42,050 nucleotides of DNA from Desulfobulbaceae bacterium (lineage in GTDB: Bacteria > Desulfobacterota > Desulfobulbia > Desulfobulbales > UBA5123), in NCBI GenBank assembly GCA_029865195.1, contig JAOUHH010000001.1, forward strand, positions 1 through 42,050, written 5' to 3'. A program made the translations under genes and the position numbers. Under the pieces are notes generated by a model. The model was given only the letters and a program-made list of their open reading frames with translations. It had not been told where the DNA came from and did not search any database. Of the stretch, positions 2,381-40,683 are shown piece by piece (position 1 is the stretch's first letter; each line of letters starts with the position of its first letter).

Positions 2381-3466
2381 ATGGCCGTTCGCCCCCACCC
2401 CAAGCAACTCACCGATCCCCGATACTCCCGCACCTGGATCATCGATTATTACCCGCAAGGCCGCAAAGGCAAGCAGTTCAAGCGGCAATTCATCGGCACC
2501 GAAGGCGAGGCCCGCGCCCTCGAGGCGGAACTCCGTCGCGGCCACTCGCTCACGGTTGCGCCGCATCCCAAAATCATCGACCTCCTGCCGGAGTGGCTTG
2601 CCTACTACGCCAACAACCGCGCCGCCTCAACAGTGGCCGACGCCAAAACCTGCCTCAAGCAGCTGGTGCCGTTCTTCGGCATGCTGTTCGTCAATGCCAT
2701 CACGCCCGGGGTGGTTGAACAATACAAGGCCAAGCGCCGCCTGCCTGATCCGGCCACCGGCAGGGCGGCGGTGGGCAAACGCACCGTCAACAAGGAGTTG
2801 TCGTACCTGTCGAGCCTGATCACCTGGGCGACCGACAACAGCCACGCCGCGCCGCTGCCGTTCCGGATCAGGCCGTTCCCCCGGGTGCGATCGCCCAAGC
2901 CCCGCCCCCTTAACCGCGATCAGGTCACGGCGCTGATCAACGCCATCGAACCGGAATACCGCCTGCTGGTGATGATGATGACCGACGGCGGCCTCCGCCG
3001 CAACGAGGCGACCATGGCCACCGCCGAAAACGTGGACCTTGAACTCGGGGTGATATTCGTGAAAGGAAAGGGCGGCCACGAACGCCTGGTGCCGATCCTC
3101 ACCGACCGGCTGCGGGCGGCGCTCGCACACCGCATAAAAGAAACCGGCGGCCGGGGCTACCTCTCGGTAAACCCGGCCACCGGCAAGCCATACTACGGCA
3201 TCCGCAAAGCCCTGCTCCGCGCCGCCACGTCCACCGGCCTCGACAAAAACGTCTACCACCACCTGCTGCGCCACTCATTTGGGACGTCTATGGCCGCCGC
3301 AGGTGTTGACCTCGCCGCGATTCAGGATATAATGGGCCACCGTGACCCGAAAGTCACCAGAATCTACGCCCAACTCGCCGCCGAGGCGCTGAAGGCAGCC
3401 AGCCACAAGGCCGGTTCTTACATGGAGAATTCAACGCCCCCAAAAAACACCGCCACCACGGGATGA
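2381..3466 (+). CDS. int: Tyrosine-type phage integrase
   Basis: 'GGLRRNEA', 'HHLLRHSFGTSMAAAG' and 'IMGHRDPKVTRIY' supply the R...HxxR...H...Y catalytic pattern. It sits next to the tRNA-derived att sequence. Confidence 0.9.
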   Translation: MAVRPHPKQLTDPRYSRTWIIDYYPQGRKGKQFKRQFIGTEGEARALEAELRRGHSLTVAPHPKIIDLLPEWLAYYANNRAASTVADAKTCLKQLVPFFGMLFVNAITPGVVEQYKAKRRLPDPATGRAAVGKRTVNKELSYLSSLITWATDNSHAAPLPFRIRPFPRVRSPKPRPLNRDQVTALINAIEPEYRLLVMMMTDGGLRRNEATMATAENVDLELGVIFVKGKGGHERLVPILTDRLRAALAHRIKETGGRGYLSVNPATGKPYYGIRKALLRAATSTGLDKNVYHHLLRHSFGTSMAAAGVDLAAIQDIMGHRDPKVTRIYAQLAAEALKAASHKAGSYMENSTPPKNTATTG

Positions 3467-30109: not shown

Positions 30110-30375
30110 CCCTCATTCACAATTCGTCTGATCTGTCTGGGGCAAAGGCCGAACCGTTCGGCCAGTTCGCCCACGTTGGCGCCGTTGAATAGGAGGCGGA
30201 TGCGGTGGTCGCGGGCCTCCCGGTTGAGCTCGTCCATGGTCGGCACCGTGATCCGGAAACCACCGAGCTCTTCGACCAACACCAGCATAATCGCGGCGCC
30301 AGCCTCCGCGCCAAACTCCTGCACCAGCCTGGCGGCGTATTGATCAATCAGTTCCCTGTTCTCGGCCCTCGACAC
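30106..30375 (-). CDS. Mor/C-family transcriptional activator-like protein
   Basis: The C-terminal HTH 'RIRLLFNGANVGELAERFGLCPRQIRRIV' fits the Mor family pattern. Confidence 0.65.
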   Translation of the reverse strand: MSRAENRELIDQYAARLVQEFGAEAGAAIMLVLVEELGGFRITVPTMDELNREARDHRIRLLFNGANVGELAERFGLCPRQIRRIVNEG

Positions 30376-31384
30376 TGGTGGCGCCCCCTTGAGTATAAAG
30401 TTGTTCCCATGTGCGCCAATAATCCCTCAAACTGCGGTACTCCTGATTGACCCGGCCGCGCCTCGGTAAATAACGGTCGGTGGTTGCTATGTTCTTGTGT
30501 CCGAGCCTGGCCGCGATTGCGGCGATGGTGAAGCCGCGCACAAAAAGCAGGTCGCTGCCGTGGGTGGCCCGGAACATGTGCGAGTGGATCCGTGGCTTGC
30601 GGACTCCGGCGGCGGTGGCTAGTTCTTTGACCAGGCGGTCGATGTCGTTGCCGGAAAGACGGCGGCCGACCAGTTGGTCGTTTTTGCGATAGCTGACAAA
30701 CAGCGGGTCGTCGATCTTCGCGCCCTGGGTGATCCGCACATTGAGCCAGCGGCGGATGAACACCGCCGGCGCGGCCCAGAGATCCACGGCCCGGCTGTGG
30801 CCCTGCTTGCCGATCTCTTCGTTGACCAGGATGTCGACATAGTGGCCATCGTCGACAAGGTCGGCCAGCCGCAGGCCGCACAACTCGCCAACCCGGAGAC
30901 CGGCAAAAGCCATTACGATCAGGATACAGGTGTCGCGCAGTCCCTTCTCGGTGGTCGGCGGGCTGGCCTCGAAAAACTTGATCACCTCGCCCCGGGTAAA
31001 ATACTGGATCATCTTCGGCTTGATGCGCGGCCTGGGGATCTGCGCTGTGATGTCCTCGGTGGCCAGTTTCTCATACACCAGGAACCGCCAGAACCCGGAC
31101 AACGCCCCGAGCTTGGTGTGGCGCGTGTATGTGCCGTTGCGGCGGTCGTAGTATAGATGCTTGAGCCATGCCTCGACGTCCTCGCGGGTGACCGACTCGA
31201 TGGCGGTGGTGCGGCCGTCCTGGTTGAGCCAGTCGAAGAACAGAGACACCCGGCGCTGATAATCGCCGACGCTCCGCTTGGTGAGGCCGCGCAGCACCAC
31301 AAGATGGTGGCCGTATTGTTCGAGCAGGTCGTCTAGCATCCCCCCCGCGCCCCCCCGGGAATAAGGTCTGAAAAACAGGCCCAA
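30344..31384 (-). CDS. Second tyrosine recombinase (XerC/D-like integrase); start may be at 31339
   Basis: 'AGLRVGELCGL', 'HMFRATHGS' and 'LGHKNIATTDRYL' are catalytic motifs. It also has an N-terminal SAM-like core-binding domain. Confidence 0.85.
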   Translation of the reverse strand: MGLFFRPYSRGGAGGMLDDLLEQYGHHLVVLRGLTKRSVGDYQRRVSLFFDWLNQDGRTTAIESVTREDVEAWLKHLYYDRRNGTYTRHTKLGALSGFWRFLVYEKLATEDITAQIPRPRIKPKMIQYFTRGEVIKFFEASPPTTEKGLRDTCILIVMAFAGLRVGELCGLRLADLVDDGHYVDILVNEEIGKQGHSRAVDLWAAPAVFIRRWLNVRITQGAKIDDPLFVSYRKNDQLVGRRLSGNDIDRLVKELATAAGVRKPRIHSHMFRATHGSDLLFVRGFTIAAIAARLGHKNIATTDRYLPRRGRVNQEYRSLRDYWRTWEQLYTQGGATSVEGREQGTD

Positions 31385-31846: not shown

Positions 31847-32155
31847 TTGCACCCTAGCACCCTATTTTGTAAAGTGGCGTTTCTCCGACGTTTTTCTTGG
31901 GTGCATTTCAAAAAGCAGGCCCAAGAGTTGCACCCAACTTGCACCCACTTGCACCCAACTTGCACCCAACTTGCACCCAATCTAAATAACTAAAATTAAA
32001 TATAAAAATAAGGTTTGGGTGCAAGGGTGCAAGTGTTTCAGAAATGCGCCCGCCATCTCTGCAAAACACTAAGAAAAAAGGGGTGAGGTCTGGTTTTTTG
32101 ACAAATCCACCCTTTTGCCGTGTTTTTGCACCCACCAGCTTGCACCCACTTGCAC
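31847..32155. repeat. Iteron cluster with an AT-rich tract: candidate replication origin
   Basis: TTGCACCCA occurs five times in tandem at 31928, 31939, 31949, 31960 and 31971, spaced 10-11 bp. Further copies lie at 31847, 32126 and 32140, with a partial copy at 32150. Inverted copies lie at 31898, 32016 and 32024. AT-rich tract at 31981-32014. Confidence 0.7.
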
Positions 32156-32158
32156 TTT

Positions 32159-32731
32159 TCATGCTTCGTACACCAATAAAGCCGCGTCTACCAGCCAACG
32201 GGCAAAGGCTGGGACTGTTGCCGCCCGCTGGTGCTTGCTCATTAGTTGTTGCCGTCTCCGGTCGCCGCCCTGGTCATGCAACCGGTATGGGATAACAAGT
32301 TTTTCAGTCTTCACCCGTGAGAAACAGAGCCATGTTGCCTTTCTCATCGGGTATCCCCACCAGGCTTGCCATACAGAGATTGTCTTCATGTCCCCGACCG
32401 ATTGGCCTGGGCGTGGGAGGCCCGCCGCATCGAAAAGCCGGGAATGGGCCGGATGCTCCAACACGCCCCCACATTCCCGCAACTGGTCTGCACACCACAA
32501 GCCAAGCTCTTTCTCTCCCGGTAACGGTTTTGCTTGGTGCCCGCAATAGGCGCTCCATGCCCTGCACGGAGGATGGGCCACAATTGGCATCCCCCCTACA
32601 AATGATTTGGCATCCCGCCGCATGTCGTAGGCCTCGACCTCATGCATACTCTTATAGAAACTATTATTGGAGCAGCATAATACCGCCACGGTCTTGGTTG
32701 TGTCGCTGTCGTGGATGGCTATTCTCATCAT
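32159..32731 (-). CDS. 190-aa protein with C5-cytosine-methyltransferase-like motifs IV, VI, VIII and X, but no motif I or target-recognition domain
   Basis: 'HPPCRAWS' resembles PCQ motif IV. 'GGVLEHP' resembles ENV. 'WGYPMRKATWL' resembles QxRxR. 'QRAATVPAFARWL' resembles GNxVP. Resemblance judged by eye only. Confidence 0.45.
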   Translation of the reverse strand: MMRIAIHDSDTTKTVAVLCCSNNSFYKSMHEVEAYDMRRDAKSFVGGMPIVAHPPCRAWSAYCGHQAKPLPGEKELGLWCADQLRECGGVLEHPAHSRLFDAAGLPRPGQSVGDMKTISVWQAWWGYPMRKATWLCFSRVKTEKLVIPYRLHDQGGDRRRQQLMSKHQRAATVPAFARWLVDAALLVYEA

Positions 32732-33743
32732 TCACACAACCCGTAAATTGAAGAACACTTCGGCGGGGCTAGTGATTCGATCAGCCCGAATTGCCGCCCC
32801 CCCCGTACCGTGCGCGACCAATTAACCACATCGTCAATCATTGGCATTGGTAGATGGTGTTGCTTTTGGTGCTGTCCCGGCGTTTTGTCCGCAGCAAAAA
32901 AGGATGAGATACCTCGTTTGCTGCACAACCCAACTAACCGCTCCCACTCCCTGATCCGGTCTATCTCTCCCGGGAACCGCCAGGCAATGTTCCGGATCTC
33001 ATCTTTCCCGGCATGGATACACGGCATGCAACCGACCCGGCCACAACCCATCGAATACAATGGGTTTGGTTTGATGCCGTGCCGCCGGTGCATGGCAAAC
33101 ACTCGCTCTGCCGACCAACCAAGGATAGGGCGGACAATGATAAACTCCGGTGCCAGCCGCTCGATTTGCGGCATTTTTGCCCGGTCTGGTGATTCATCTG
33201 CCCGAACCCCTTGCCAAGACATCACTTTGTAGCCATCGGCCAAGAGAGGCACACCGCGACCTGATCGTCGATCAATTCCCGTTTCAACTCCTGTGAGCAG
33301 AAACGCGCCCGAGTGGAAGGGAACCGGCCCTTTAGAATGCACAGGTCAAGAAACGGGTTGCCGGTTGGGTACATATTCTCCAGCGCCCGGCGTTTTGCTT
33401 TGTTGGACCACCGGACCTTGCGGCCAGCACCAGTTTTCTTTTTGATCGGCTTCCCTTCGTCGTCCCGGCCTACAGTGACATACTTGTATTTCCTGCCGGT
33501 GCGCTGATCGTTGGCCACAAATGCGCGGTGCTTGAGTATCCGCTTGCTGAAATCGGCCTTAACCCGGACAATCGGCCCGGTCTTTTCTTCGAGGTAATCA
33601 AGATAATCATAGGTGGACTGGTGCTCGTTGCCGGTGTCCGCAAACACAGCGATATGAGGGATACCCTTCTCAATGGCAACCAGGCGCGTTGCGCCGGAGT
33701 CTTTGCCGCCGGAAACGGAAATAACGTGGATGGTTTCCATCAC
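32728..33743 (-). pseudogene. PAPS-reductase-family (PP-loop ATP pyrophosphatase) gene split into two frames
   Basis: ORF 33222..33743 carries the 'SVSGGKDS' PP-loop and 'CSQELK'. ORF 32728..33342 continues with 'SWQGVRADESPDR...GCMPC' in the adjacent reading frame. The junction is near 33255-33285. Confidence 0.7.
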
Positions 33744-36700
33744 CGCACCACCGTATGCCTAAATTTCAAAAACCTTTGCCCATGCACCACCTTGGAGTGC
33801 ATCTTGCCGTCTTTCCCCGGCACCAGATCCCAACCGCCTTTTTTAAGCAGCGGCAGGTCGTTCTTGAGCCTGGCGCCCAACTTTGCCCCGGTGTCATAGG
33901 GGTTGTGCTTGCCGTTGTTGCGGCAGAATCGGTCGAACACCAGGGCCAGTTCCTTGCTGGTCGTCTCAAACTCGATGTGGCTGGTCGTGCAGTCGTTTTC
34001 GGTGTCGTACACCGGCTTGGTCTTCACCATATCCAGGCCGTATTCCGGATGCGTCCACTCAAACACCGGCTCGTCGTAGCCGATTTTGTCTTTCAGTGGC
34101 AGGCTCAACTCCCGCATCTTGAGCATGTATTCCCGCACCACGCCGTCCAACAGCTTCAGGATGTTATTGCTGCCGATCTCGGTGTCCTTGGCCTTGGTGT
34201 TCTGGTAGTCGATCCACGCCTTGCGGATCTCCTTTTCGCCGGTCTCAATGCCGTGCCGGAAATCGTCCTCGCCGTAAAACGGCATGTGCGGCAGGGTCTT
34301 TTCGAGCAGCAGCATCATCAGCGCCCAGAACTCGTTCATCCGGTCCTTGGAGTGGCCCCGGTACTCTTTCTGCAGGATGGTGATGTATTCCCGGCGCCGG
34401 GCCAGGTTGGGCAGTATCTCTTTCTGAATCAGCTTGATAAACGCCGAGAGGATCAGATCGCGCTTTTTCACCAGCGCCCTGGTCACCTCGTCTTCGATAA
34501 AGTCGTCGCTCTGCCATTCTTTGCCGAACTCGATGTCCACCGTCCGGTTGATCAACTCCGGCTTGGTGAACGGCTCGATGGCGGTGATCAGCACCAGCGC
34601 CCGCGGGCTTTCCTCTGTGGTGTCGCTTTCGGTGCCGCCGGCGCGTTTGGATTTCTGGCCCCTGGTGGCGGCCAGCAACAGAAATTTGAGGATGGATTTG
34701 GTAACGTCGTCGCTTTCGAGGTTGTCGATCACCAGGATGGGGTTTTGCGCGGCCATGGAGTAAGCCGCCGCCGCGCTCGGGTCTTCGAGGTGGCCGTCGC
34801 CGTACAGCAACACGGTGATCAGCTTGGCCGCGGTACTCTTGCCGCAGCCGCTGCCGCCTGAAAACTTCATGTGGCCCTGGCTCGATACCAGATCGAGCAG
34901 CACAAAGGTGAGCAGCCAGCAGGTGATCAGGTAGCGCTGCTCCGGCGCGCAGGTGAAGGCGTCCTGCACCAGTTCCTTGTAGGCGACAAACCCCTCATGG
35001 ATATCGGCATCGGGCCGGAAGTTGAACGGCTGGATCTTCTTGCTGCTCTGCAGGAGGACCGAATCTTCGTTGAGCCCGTTGGGGATCTCGCTTATCCCGC
35101 CCTTTGCCGACATCTTGATGATGGTGTTGCCCGGTGAATTCAGGTTGATGAAGATCGAGTCGGTGGCCAGATCGGTATGCACCCACCGGGCCACGTCGAT
35201 CTTGCGGCCGGCGTTGTAGCCCTCGCTGGCCAGCGATTCCCACACACTCGGCCCCGGCGCCAGGTTGGGCAGCAGCATGGTGTGGCGTTTCATCAGGGCG
35301 TTGAATGGCCGGTTGTTGCCCACTTCATAAATCTGGTGGTTCAGGAGCAGATACACCTTGTTGGCCGCATTCCAGAAAAACCGGCCATCCCTGGCCATCT
35401 CCTTGTAGATGATCGCGGCCAGGGCGTTCGGCTCGACGTTCTTGGGCCCGCCCATGTTCTCGATATAGACACTCACCAGCCGCCGGAGCTCCAGGCCGTT
35501 TTCAATCTGGTGGCGGATCCCTTTTTCGGTGAAGCCGATGCCCTCCATCTTTTCGATGTATATCTGCTGCTGAACATCCGCCTCGGTGGCCACCAGCCGG
35601 AACACCTCCATCTCTTTCAGGTGGTCGAACCGTTCCTCAAGGGTCGCCAGCCGCCCGGCCCGGCCGATCTCCCATGTGAGATAGTCGACCGCCTCGTCCA
35701 TCAGCCGCTTGATCTCCTTGCGCCGGTCGCCCTCGAAGCCGCGCAGGTAGTCGTCCGGGTCTTTCACGGTGTCGGGGTAGGTGATCACCCGGACGTTTAT
35801 CTCCGGCATCAGCGCCCGGCATATCTTCCGCACGTAGCCGATCCCCTTGGCAAACGGCTTGCCCGGTTCCTCGTCGTTGTCCATCCAGAGGTAGAGCTTT
35901 TTGCCCCTGCAGGCGCTCTTGAGGTGTTTGATCTGCTCGTCGCTGATCTGGCCGATCATGCCGACCACGTTCTTGGTCTTGGTGTCGATCACCGAGAGCG
36001 TGTCGTCCTCGCCCTCAACCAGGATGAGCTCCTGGAACTTCTCCATGGCCTCCTGGTTGTAGAACCGCCACTGCTTGTGCCGTTTCTCGGCCGGCAGCTG
36101 GTAGGCAAGTTTCTTGGCCGGGTCTTTCATGGTGAAATGCAGCACCCGCCCGCGCTCGATGTGGGGGTAAATCGCCAACCCCTTGCCGAAAAAGTCGAGC
36201 ACCCTGGCCGCGCCTTCAATATCCTTTTCGCGGGCCAGCCCGGCGTCGATGATCTCGGCCGGGGTGTAGCCCTTGCTCTGCAGGTGGTCGATCAGCTGGC
36301 CGTCCGACCAGCCAACCTTCATGGCCTTGAGCACCTCCATGTCGTGGCCGCGGGTCTCGGTGAGGTATGCCTTGCCGCCGTTCACCAGCATGTGGCCGTG
36401 GTAGTAGTCGGCGGCATCGAGCATCAACTTGTCGCGGCGGCTCAAACGCACTTCCGGGGCCTTCTTGCGCTCGGTGAGGGCAATGCCTGCCAACCCGGCG
36501 GCCATCTTGAGCGCCTCGCCCTTGTCCAGGCTGTGAAACAGTTCCAGAAAGGTGAACACGTCGCCGCCCGCACCGCACTGAAAGCACTTGAACAGCTGCT
36601 CGTTGTCCTGGATGGAAAAACACCCATGCCCGCTACACATCGGGCACTGCTCAAGGTGCTTTCCCTTCATCTGAAAACCGGACTCGGCAGTAATGACGGC

Positions 36701-36745
36701 CTTGATGTTCAGCGCCGGCTTGACAAGTTCAAAGTCGCTGCTCAT
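33740..36745 (-). CDS. Primase-helicase: CHC2 zinc finger, TOPRIM and P-loop NTPase domains
   Basis: 'CPMCSGHGCFSI...FKCFQCGAGGDVFTF' is a DnaG-type zinc finger. 'ILVEGEDDTLSV' is TOPRIM. 'GGSGCGKST' is Walker A and 'ILVIDNLESDD' is Walker B. Confidence 0.9.
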   Translation of the reverse strand: MSSDFELVKPALNIKAVITAESGFQMKGKHLEQCPMCSGHGCFSIQDNEQLFKCFQCGAGGDVFTFLELFHSLDKGEALKMAAGLAGIALTERKKAPEVRLSRRDKLMLDAADYYHGHMLVNGGKAYLTETRGHDMEVLKAMKVGWSDGQLIDHLQSKGYTPAEIIDAGLAREKDIEGAARVLDFFGKGLAIYPHIERGRVLHFTMKDPAKKLAYQLPAEKRHKQWRFYNQEAMEKFQELILVEGEDDTLSVIDTKTKNVVGMIGQISDEQIKHLKSACRGKKLYLWMDNDEEPGKPFAKGIGYVRKICRALMPEINVRVITYPDTVKDPDDYLRGFEGDRRKEIKRLMDEAVDYLTWEIGRAGRLATLEERFDHLKEMEVFRLVATEADVQQQIYIEKMEGIGFTEKGIRHQIENGLELRRLVSVYIENMGGPKNVEPNALAAIIYKEMARDGRFFWNAANKVYLLLNHQIYEVGNNRPFNALMKRHTMLLPNLAPGPSVWESLASEGYNAGRKIDVARWVHTDLATDSIFINLNSPGNTIIKMSAKGGISEIPNGLNEDSVLLQSSKKIQPFNFRPDADIHEGFVAYKELVQDAFTCAPEQRYLITCWLLTFVLLDLVSSQGHMKFSGGSGCGKSTAAKLITVLLYGDGHLEDPSAAAAYSMAAQNPILVIDNLESDDVTKSILKFLLLAATRGQKSKRAGGTESDTTEESPRALVLITAIEPFTKPELINRTVDIEFGKEWQSDDFIEDEVTRALVKKRDLILSAFIKLIQKEILPNLARRREYITILQKEYRGHSKDRMNEFWALMMLLLEKTLPHMPFYGEDDFRHGIETGEKEIRKAWIDYQNTKAKDTEIGSNNILKLLDGVVREYMLKMRELSLPLKDKIGYDEPVFEWTHPEYGLDMVKTKPVYDTENDCTTSHIEFETTSKELALVFDRFCRNNGKHNPYDTGAKLGARLKNDLPLLKKGGWDLVPGKDGKMHSKVVHGQRFLKFRHTVVR

Positions 36746-39745: not shown

Positions 39746-40381
39746 TCAAATCCCTCCCACCCGCTCCATCTGTTCCTTGGTCGGCTTGGTGTAGATCATG
39801 GTTGATGAAAACGCCTTGTGACGGAGTTGCTCGGCGCAAAATTGCAGTTTTTGCTGCTGTTCTTCCGGCAGCAGGTTGATCAGGTCGGCGATGATCCGGT
39901 GCGCCTTCGTGTGCCGCAGGGCATGCGGGGTGTAGATGTTGATCCCCGCCTCGCGGCACCAGTTCCCCATCAGGTCGTTAAAGGTCCGCGCCCCGATCCG
40001 TCCGCCCTTCTTGCTCACAAAGAGCGGGGCGTCGGCGGCCAGGCTTTCGCCCCATGTCCGCTTGCGGCGCAGGTGCGCGGCCAGAATCTCGCGCAGGTCT
40101 TTGTTCATGTAAACGGCGCCGGTCGCTCCCTTCTTGGCGATCCGCTCGTCGACCACCAGCTGGTTCTTGATGGTCACGCCGTTGTCGGTTACGTCGCCCA
40201 CGTTCAGGGCGATGGCCTCGCCGCGCCGCAGGGCGGTGTGGCGGCACATCTTGAGCAGGGCGAAGTCGCGCTCCGCCTGCTTGCCCTTGCGGCCTTTGAT
40301 GGTCGCAAAGAGCGCTTTTTCTTCCGCCTCGGTCAGGTAGTTTTCCCCGGCCCTGGTCTGGATAGGGTTGTTCATGGTCAT
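39746..40381 (-). CDS. Third, small (211 aa) tyrosine recombinase without an N-terminal core-binding domain
   Basis: 'TALRRGEAIAL', 'HALRHTKAH' and 'LRHKAFSSTMIYT'. GGGAGG precedes the ATG at 40379-40381. Confidence 0.8.
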   Translation of the reverse strand: MTMNNPIQTRAGENYLTEAEEKALFATIKGRKGKQAERDFALLKMCRHTALRRGEAIALNVGDVTDNGVTIKNQLVVDERIAKKGATGAVYMNKDLREILAAHLRRKRTWGESLAADAPLFVSKKGGRIGARTFNDLMGNWCREAGINIYTPHALRHTKAHRIIADLINLLPEEQQQKLQFCAEQLRHKAFSSTMIYTKPTKEQMERVGGI

Positions 40382-40683
40382 GGATTGCCTCCCGTTGCTG
40401 TTGGTTGTGCCTCGAAGGTCTCGCGGGGCAGGCGGCGAGGCATACCGCTTTTCGGGGCGCACTCCCTATCCCCGCGATTCCAGATGATGAACCCGACCAC
40501 CGACGTGGCCAGATAAAAGCAAAAAAGAGCCACCGCCGGCCAGTTGCCGACCCGGTAAAACGCGCCGATCCAGCCGATGTTGGCGAATATCCACACACCC
40601 TGCCCACTGCGGCGGCGGGCCATATTGAGCACCGCGCCGGTCATGCTGAGTCCGGTGAGCATCCAGGTCGGCTCAAGAGGCAT
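40378..40683 (-). CDS. Small integral membrane protein (about 3 TM helices)
   Basis: Hydrophobic segments with conserved Trp and Gly residues. ATGA coupling to the recombinase gene. Confidence 0.45.
   Translation of the reverse strand: MPLEPTWMLTGLSMTGAVLNMARRRSGQGVWIFANIGWIGAFYRVGNWPAVALFCFYLATSVVGFIIWNRGDRECAPKSGMPRRLPRETFEAQPTATGGNP

Follow-up and report, generated by a model that had tools for sequence, protein, structure and literature searches.

The window analyzed here is a stretch of 42,050 nucleotides of contig JAOUHH010000001.1 from a Desulfobulbaceae bacterium (assembly GCA_029865195.1). On its minus strand, at 32159-32731, it contains an open reading frame (ORF) for a protein of 190 amino acids (AA), which follows a frameshifted PP-loop gene of the phosphoadenosine phosphosulfate (PAPS) reductase kind. 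The explanation favored, in which we place about even confidence, makes the 190-AA protein a minimal enzyme, probably a methylase, that modifies cytosine at C5 on its own, without the PAPS-reductase, and protects the phage DNA. A predicted structure supports a C5-cytosine-methyltransferase fold pared to approximately 170 residues and six strands. Judged by this model, the family of the protein, phrog_12600, is a stripped-down variant of the C5-cytosine methyltransferases and, on present evidence, not a new kind of system.

Family assignment of the 190-AA protein

The 190-AA protein matched the profile of phrog_12600 with an E-value of 8.5e-40, whereby residues 13-184 were aligned to profile positions 2-191 of 203. 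No match was obtained in Pfam, NCBIfam or PADLOC. The family is annotated with 'unknown function' and comprises 6,474 clusters at 90% identity (E ≤ 0.001) and 1,325 at 50% identity. That a family with thousands of members lacks a Pfam model leaves a gap in the annotation of phage genomes. A fragment of a Dcm-type gene, which the original prediction had named as a possible refutation, was rejected, since the profile match spans the whole protein and the median length of the family is 195 AA. The sequence comparison thus identifies the 190-AA protein as a complete member of a small-protein family.

In the literature on the characterization of phrog_12600, the annotation of the Rhodobacter microvirus Ebor alone was found. 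Ebor Gp8 is 33% identical to the 190-AA protein over 94% of the length and agrees with it in family, size and motifs. It was named a putative DNA methylase from an HHpred match with an E-value of 2.3e-8 (PMC11980548). The genomic settings differ: Ebor is a 6.6-kb single-stranded DNA (ssDNA) microvirus without a PP-loop gene, whereas the window copy lies in a 42-kb temperate-phage-like contig, possibly of a host genome, downstream of a PAPS-reductase.

Ten long members of the family were scanned for fusion partners, which gave a single weak ParB_N match in a protein of 742 AA (P0184). In this protein the small C5-methyltransferase-like domain is N-terminal and is followed by the ParB_N match. 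Fusions of ParB and methyltransferase domains are common in phages, and the layout of P0184 echoes them. For the homolog of Pseudomonas phage Persinger, one of two GenBank records (NC_054149.1) gives the name 'ParB-like partition protein'. In two loci from bacterial metagenome-assembled genomes the family gene appears split in two ORFs (L147, 5749-6705; L149, 5901-6566), which suggests occasional decay of the gene in prophages.

Predicted fold, motif register and conservation

An AlphaFold2 model of the 190-AA protein was built from 52 homologs. It reached a predicted local distance difference test score of 91.9 and a predicted template modeling score of 0.87 and consists of six strands, a long central helix and C-terminal helices. 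When searched against the PDB with Foldseek, all of the top 50 matches were C5-cytosine methyltransferases (DNMT3A/B, M.HaeIII, M.HhaI, ZMET2, DIM2), with a best E-value of 5e-4 and probabilities mostly of 0.9-1.0. Named matches in BFVD were mostly cytosine or S-adenosylmethionine (SAM, AdoMet)-dependent methyltransferases. An unrelated fold, another outcome by which the original prediction was to be refuted, was not what the structure search returned.

The family was aligned by hhalign to a profile of canonical C5 enzymes, which was rather shallow. A relaxed alignment had an E-value of 0.004, with a pairwise P of 0.004 for each half. In this register, the motif I strand lies at residues 15-19 (family VAVLC, canonical DLFAG), motif IV at residues 53-56 (HPPC; family HPPCRxWS, canonical SPCCQGHS), motif VI at residues 91-94 (LEHP; family GGVLEHP, canonical vvENV), motif VIII at residues 126-131 (GYPMRK; family WfGhP..K.TWL, canonical hGVPQ.R.R.F) and the motif X helix at residues 169-180 (RAATVPAFARWL; family xxTVP..FA.WL, canonical GNAVxPP.A..I). 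The family and the canonical C5 methyltransferases (PF00145; M.HhaI, M.HaeIII, DNMT3A/B) have the same predicted fold and the same order and register for the motif I strand, the PPC of motif IV, the Glu of motif VI, the basic residue of motif VIII and the motif X helix. The sequence AHPPCRAWS of the window protein resembles the motif IV form (S/G)PPCQxxS, as do SPPC in SpCmoX and SPCCQGHS in Acica_45. Canonical enzymes measure 270-330 AA or more, whereas the family measures approximately 170-190 AA.

Conservation was computed over 150 representatives of the clusters at 50% identity (148 in the case of the motif IV Cys and Pro). With 98-100% conservation, the motif residues are not a product of chance. 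The residues of catalytic type are nearly invariant (Cys56 99%, Glu92 99%, Lys131 98%), and the same holds for their surroundings: P55, G88 and G89 are conserved in 100%, H53 in 99%, G126 in 98%, and Pro94, Ser97, Tyr26 and Arg39 in 98-100%. Across the family, S24, Y26, R39 and R169 show 91-99% conservation, with R169 at 91%. In motif VI the Glu aligns with that of ENV, which in canonical enzymes protonates N3 of cytosine, but Asn-Val is replaced by His/Gln-Pro, so that the canonical ENV becomes E(H/Q)P. In motif VIII, R130 occurs in 35% of the members, and one invariant basic residue, the Lys, stands for the canonical QxRxR, whose basic residues touch the flipped cytosine. As judged from the alignment, the near-invariance of Cys, Glu and Lys indicates an enzyme and not a decayed relic. 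Taken together, the top 50 Foldseek matches, the hhalign register and the conservation bear out a C5-methyltransferase-like fold with motifs IV, VI and VIII in the order originally predicted.

A normal target-recognition domain is missing. Where the original prediction had counted about 35 AA in its place, there are approximately 30 residues (136-165) with little predicted secondary structure between motif VIII and the C-terminal helices, in agreement with the earlier estimate.

An amino-methyltransferase, in which HPPC would be a variant of DPPY, was weighed as well but not adopted: the structure search matched C5 enzymes, the ENV-type Glu and the PPC..S context are C5-specific and FxGxG is absent. 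A hidden Markov model (HMM) iterated from canonical C5 enzymes failed to retrieve the phrog_12600 family. The family profile, searched against the PDB sequences, gave only chance-level matches to Cre recombinase (E ~0.3).

Proposed activity and evidence weighing against it

If the favored explanation holds, Cys56 of HPPC would be the nucleophile attacking C6 of cytosine in phage DNA, while Glu92 of LEHP (the equivalent of ENV) and Lys131 at the motif VIII position would hold and activate the base. C5 would then receive a one-carbon group, in the simplest case a methyl group donated by AdoMet. With about 30 residues instead of a target-recognition domain, the enzyme would have a short or relaxed sequence specificity. 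The modification would shield the phage DNA from host restriction. If active, phrog_12600 would be by far the smallest known DNA cytosine-C5 modifying enzyme (~170 residues versus at least 270 in the smallest catalytic domains among the PDB matches), would define the minimal catalytic core of the C5 fold and would explain an affordable anti-restriction function in ssDNA phages of 4-11 kb.

Several observations weigh against this explanation. The template modeling scores of the Foldseek matches are approximately 0.45 (query-normalized), and hhalign to the shallow C5 profile is weak with default settings (E 0.21). PF00145, searched in 60 diverse members, gave no match even at E-values up to 10. 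The FxGxG of AdoMet motif I is missing; conservation and alignment confirm the original prediction in this respect, as VAVLC is followed by a loop xxxxSxY without glycines. Position 19, which counts in favor of the explanation, is C in 54%, F in 39% and Y in 5% of the members and is thus aromatic, like the Phe of FxGxG, in 44%. Motif X, which had been predicted to be kept, is retained as a helix (T172-P..FA.WL on AVxPP.A..I, P 0.004), but its Gly-Asn dipeptide is absent and R169-x is found in its place. In the AlphaFold2 model, strand 3 with the motif III region is missing, together with most helices of the AdoMet half (helices A-C). Given these missing signatures, the use of AdoMet by the 190-AA protein is assumed. 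Furthermore, nanopore calls on Ebor DNA amounted to 1.58% 5-methylcytosine (5mC), and the authors were unable to attribute the methylation they observed to Gp8 (PMC11980548). This low value fits either a rare site or the absence of C5 methylation. Finally, the 4-nt ATGA overlaps with a PP-loop gene, present in the window and in one further locus (L052), would also fit a functional coupling of the two genes.

Alternative donors and substrates

The C5 fold can change its donor, as is evident from CmoX of Synechococcus phage S-B43. CmoX is a phage C5-methyltransferase homolog with SPPC as motif IV and, instead of the motif X Asn, an Arg for the binding of carboxy-SAM (Cx-SAM); adenine and ribose are contacted by Phe25, Phe48, Glu47 and Asp69, and a phage CmoA is encoded alongside in most contigs (PMC12783734). 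The CmoX step is followed by ATP-dependent ligases, of which CmoY is AMP-forming (PMC12783734). The missing AdoMet motifs, together with the discovery of CmoX, make phrog_12600 a reasonable candidate for non-methyl chemistry.

Accepting this comparison, the 190-AA protein would be a cytosine-C5 enzyme without AdoMet as methyl donor, either a carboxymethyltransferase like CmoX, with Cx-SAM of the host as donor, or a cofactor-free enzyme, e.g. for deamination, aldehyde addition or removal of a 5-substituent. The two proteins are alike in the C5-methyltransferase fold, in an xPPC motif IV and in an Arg at or next to the Asn of motif X. FxGxG and this Asn are absent from the whole family while S24, Y26, R39 and R169 are kept, and the small amount of 5mC in Ebor DNA would be expected. 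R169 stands one residue before the hhalign-aligned Asn of GNAV, the very position at which CmoX differs from methylases by an Asn-to-Arg exchange, and is on sequence grounds a lead for a changed donor. This Arg equivalence, however, depends on a weak alignment and misses the Asn by one position, and D36 and F/Y19 would suit ordinary AdoMet binding. CmoX is moreover full-size (372 residues in PDB chain 8YF3), keeps AdoMet-type adenine and ribose contacts and mostly travels with a phage CmoA, whereas the 190-AA protein is minimal and no gene for CmoA or another protein of the methyltransferase fold was detected among the 20 window ORFs screened. On balance, we regard a non-AdoMet enzyme as rather unlikely.

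A wider version would make phrog_12600 a new class of minimal cytosine-C5 modifiers without a canonical AdoMet site, using another donor (e.g. carboxy-SAM of the host via Arg169) or none, with a translationally coupled PP-loop enzyme elaborating the adduct in a minority of phages, which would amount to a new two-step hypermodification of DNA. This we consider quite unlikely.

The substrate might also be something other than phage DNA. The protein would then be a methyltransferase for 5-methylcytosine in tRNA or other RNA, similar to DNMT2, or a non-catalytic binder or decoy of a host factor. DNMT2 shows that the C5-methyltransferase fold can act on tRNA, and DNMT2 as well as a tRNA methyltransferase were found among the sequence relatives of the canonical enzyme. 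The tiny size, the near absence of a target-recognition domain and the presence in ssDNA phages would suit such a role. The near-invariant Cys, Glu and Lys speak against a pseudoenzyme, though, the top fold matches are DNA enzymes, and the location beside replication or packaging genes fits DNA modification. A substrate other than DNA is therefore judged to be very unlikely.

The PAPS-reductase-like gene and its relatives

The gene preceding the 190-AA ORF is present in two halves, both on the minus strand. The N-terminal half (N-half; 33222-33743, 173 AA) starts with MMETIHVISVSGGKDS, carries the PP-loop SGGKDS and ends at a premature stop codon past the frameshift. The C-terminal half (C-half) is part of an ORF of 204 AA (32728-33342) in the -1 frame relative to the N-half and contains GVRADES and GCMPC; its homologous part begins at ~33249 and reads PLLADGYKVMSWQGVRADES ... 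GCMPC ... CSSIYGLCE. Both halves exceed the PF01507 cut-off of 22.5 bits (N-half 29.4 bits, E 9.7e-7; C-half 59.4 bits, E 5.9e-16) and match phrog_424 (E 4.6e-31 and 1.4e-33, respectively). In intact homologs, the N-half covers residues 1-163 and the C-half residues 160-338. The first gene is thus a frameshifted PAPS-reductase/PP-loop gene, as originally predicted. By sequence it belongs to the family of phage 186 Orf84 and phrog_424.

After repair of the frameshift, the protein could be aligned over its entire length with intact counterparts from 64 phage records (42-48% identity), among which are 186 Orf84, P2-like proteins and gp57 of Burkholderia phage phiE125. Four Cys (in FCS, CMPC and CSS) are conserved among the close homologs. 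Orf84 of phage 186 carries the annotation of a non-essential gene with unknown function; it adjoins a replication gene, as does the gene in the window, and proteins of the Orf84 type are intact whereas the window copy is frameshifted. The test for a CysH equivalog was negative (best NCBIfam score 55.9 bits versus a cut-off of 154). The PADLOC defense models nearest to the repaired protein were SspD (E 2e-19) and BrxP (E 5e-13). SspD, DndC and BrxP are DNA-modifying PP-loop enzymes, and the window protein resembles the first and the last of them. Partner genes of the Ssp, Dnd or BREX systems (SspABC, DndABDE, BrxABC/PglZ-type) were not detected among the 20 window ORFs screened. The PAPS-reductase part is ordinary, being a common phage gene which is broken in the window contig.

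The profile phrog_15238 (215 positions, 'unknown function') matches the N-half and runs for about 45 positions into the C-half. Judged from this match, it consists of N-terminally truncated PAPS-reductase annotations and is not a distinct protein.

Genomic neighborhoods of the two families

The original prediction had proposed the two genes as a candidate DNA-modification pair and suggested to look for their co-occurrence across phage genomes. Co-occurrence was checked from both sides, and the pair does not co-occur as a rule. A phrog_12600 member within 5 kb was found in none of 82 loci with an Orf84-type PAPS-reductase (L061-L140 among them); these are mostly related P2/186-like prophages, so that counts among them do not represent independent events. 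Conversely, 74 family loci were inspected, namely the window, 58 phage or metagenome loci and 15 loci from bacterial genomes. Any PAPS-reductase-like gene within 6 kb was present in 3 of the 73 loci other than the window, or in 4 of 74 (~5%) when the window is included. The PAPS-reductase-like genes of the three other loci (L040, L047, L052) belong to distant subfamilies, and the 15 bacterial-genome loci contributed solely a Janthinobacterium prophage already seen as L052. Members of the family also occur in ssDNA phages of 4-11 kb without a PP-loop gene, and in the window the PAPS-reductase gene is broken. A conserved pair is not supported by these results, and the PAPS-reductase and the 190-AA protein are, from gene content, probably not an obligate pair.

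In L052 (5884-7448), the family gene shares an ATGA overlap with a distantly related PAPS-reductase-like gene, and their order is the reverse of that in the window. The two lie after a GpA replicase and before an integrase; L154, from Janthinobacterium sp. BJB426, is the same prophage. What looked like a fusion ORF in L052 was rejected; it is a stop-free overlap in a GC-rich genome, and there are really two genes overlapping by ATGA. In L040 (5710-7932), three genes come in the order family gene, nucleoside 2-deoxyribosyltransferase-like gene (PF15891), PAPS-reductase-like gene; they may form a small cassette for nucleotide or DNA modification. In L047, one gene of unknown type separates the family gene from the PAPS-reductase-like gene.

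The family gene usually adjoins replication-initiator or packaging genes, a setting typical of orphan phage methylases. It is present in microviruses of 4.8-6.6 kb, among them Ebor, where the replication initiator comes directly after it; the 11-kb Xanthomonas inovirus fSU1 has it immediately upstream of the replication protein. In Mu-like Pseudomonas phages it has a DNA-binding protein on one side and, on the other, the gene that comes before the portal, a position which, from the gene order of Mu, we take to be among the packaging genes; it is also present in lambdoid-type contigs. Even close homologs of the window protein (70-76% identity) are found in differing settings, namely in a DnaB/NinB/NinG region, beside an N6/N4 methylase and after an integrase. 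Clustering of the flanking ORFs in 59 loci revealed no conserved neighbor beyond one clade of related phages. As no conserved partner was found, the 190-AA protein would work with host-supplied cofactors alone. In one clade (L029-L037), the family gene directly follows prohead-protease- and major-capsid-like genes, recognized by eye from the translations, within the structural module and not in the early region.

The pairing, which the original prediction did not recognize from elsewhere, is not unprecedented: PAPS-reductase-like genes stand beside DNA methyltransferases in many P2/186-like prophages. Among the 82 Orf84-type loci, an enzyme of the Dam class (PF02086, E 2e-72) is encoded at most 2.5 kb upstream on the same strand in 24 (e.g. 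L110, 4060-4968), and a canonical C5 methylase is nearby in 7. In Acidovorax phage Acica, the gene immediately before the PAPS-reductase encodes a canonical C5 methylase; in L052/L154 this slot is taken by the mini-enzyme. With its two adjacent genes, the window adds a further example of a loose, recurrent neighborhood of methylase and PP-loop genes near replication genes. A GpA replicase follows downstream on the same strand in 48 of the 82 Orf84-type loci.

The remaining case for a coupling of the two genes is a two-step hypermodification, in which the C5-methyltransferase-like protein would add a group to cytosine and the PP-loop ATP-pyrophosphatase would adenylate and elaborate it; alternatively, the PP-loop enzyme would modify the backbone like DndC and SspD. 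Its precedent is C5-carboxymethylation by CmoX followed by ATP-dependent ligation by CmoY, and an ATP-dependent second enzyme is encoded alongside in that system as in the window, with the difference that CmoY is an AMP-forming ligase and the neighbor in the window is PAPS-reductase-like. The synthetase domain of asparagine synthetase is a PP-loop enzyme. A glutamine-amidase domain like that of asparagine synthetase occurs in one CmoY-type cluster (PMC12783734). The ATGA overlaps in the window and, in reversed order, in L052 would suit this explanation, as would the four independent family loci in which a PAPS-reductase-like gene lies within 0-1 genes (the window, L040, L047 and L052), the frequent proximity of PAPS-reductase genes to DNA methyltransferases, and the matches of the repaired protein to SspD and BrxP, both of which act on DNA. 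Yet the small protein is absent from all 82 Orf84-type loci, approximately 95% of the family loci have no PP-loop gene and the 4-11 kb ssDNA phages have no space for a partner. The PAPS-reductases of the four loci come from different subfamilies, and in the window it is the PAPS-reductase which is frameshifted, whereas the 190-AA gene is intact. The methylases near Orf84-type genes are mostly of the adenine type, to which the chemistry of a cytosine adduct is irrelevant. A two-step hypermodification is thus given a very small probability.

Frameshift in the PAPS-reductase-like gene

Both halves lie within one stop-free ORF in all 82 relatives whose DNA was retrieved from IMG/VR. The best 120 of 7,293 database homologs have 258-461 AA; query coverage is 97% or more in 117 of them and 82-94% in three. 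The nearest of these 120 is 59% identical, and a base-by-base comparison with a near relative was therefore impossible. The lesion was located by alignment to 12 close homologs, in all of which the spacing from ELK(H/R) to PLL is exactly 9 residues, and by a scan of repairs. All 149 stop-free single-site repairs were scored against an HMM made from the homologs. The best repair, with 517.4 bits, takes two bases out of GTGTG at 33250-33255. When TG is removed, the protein reads ...ELKRELIDDQVAVPLLADGYKV... across the lesion, also written ...DDQVAVPLLADGY.... The inferred frameshift site is accordingly a GTGTG run at 33250..33254 on the minus strand with an extra TG (+2 nt). The frameshift claimed in the original prediction is present; the site is at the lower edge of the interval given there, 33255-33285.

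Since the relatives are all intact, the region lacks a slippery heptamer and the best repair is a 2-nt deletion, the lesion is regarded as contig-specific and not programmed. From the sequence we conclude that the break is a local +2-nt lesion of this contig, i.e. a recent inactivating mutation or an assembly error. In the favored explanation of a stand-alone 190-AA enzyme, the PP-loop gene would accordingly have been inactivated in the window contig by this TG frameshift, or the assembly would be wrong there.

Decoding of the split gene into a functional protein by programmed -1 frameshifting would fit the -1 position of the downstream frame and the overlap of the two ORFs by ~120 nt without another lesion, but is extremely improbable and was rejected, as no X_XXY_YYZ slippery heptamer exists in 33244-33290, the 82 IMG/VR relatives are single ORFs, the 120 best database homologs are full-length and the top-scoring repair is the 2-nt deletion in the GTGTG run.

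Layout of the locus and the contig

The three-gene run on the minus strand begins with a primase-helicase of 1001 AA (33740-36745), which matches Zn_ribbon_DnaG, Toprim_2 and Toprim in Pfam as well as phrog_47, DNA primase (E 1.6e-62), and whose translation shows the Walker A motif GSGCGKST. Its stop codon and the start of the PAPS-reductase-like gene overlap by 4 nt (GTGA), and the latter gene and the 190-AA ORF overlap by 4 nt (ATGA). The order claimed originally, with the PAPS-reductase-like gene and then the 190-AA ORF after the primase-helicase, is borne out, and all motif strings quoted there are present in the sequence, including HPPCRAWS, GGVLEHP, WWGYPMRKATW and AATVPAF of the 190-AA ORF. 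The region is best explained as the tail of the early/replication operon of a temperate phage, which runs from the primase-helicase over the PAPS-reductase-like PP-loop gene to the 190-AA protein.

The family screen of 20 window ORFs returned solely integrases, regulators and ORFs without a family match; the primase was annotated separately. With three tyrosine recombinases, a repressor and CII-like and Mor-like regulators among the screened ORFs, the contig is of the temperate-phage type. A long block of large ORFs on the minus strand is taken to be the structural module. A search for tRNA genes in the window found none.

Directly downstream of the operon, in a gap of 770 bp ahead of an integrase gene, a search for direct and inverted repeat families found an iteron-like array of ACTTGCACCCA (31926..32155). 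Five direct copies with a phasing of ~10.5 bp occupy 31926-31979, two inverted copies 32015-32035 and two further direct copies 32129-32155, the last of these stretches overlapping the 3' end of the 190-AA ORF. The array is possibly a replication origin or a regulator-binding site, and its tie to the three-gene finding is positional only. The three tyrosine-recombinase (integrase-family) genes of the window are separate from one another and are located at 2381-3466 on the plus strand and at 30344-31384 and 39746-40462 on the minus strand.

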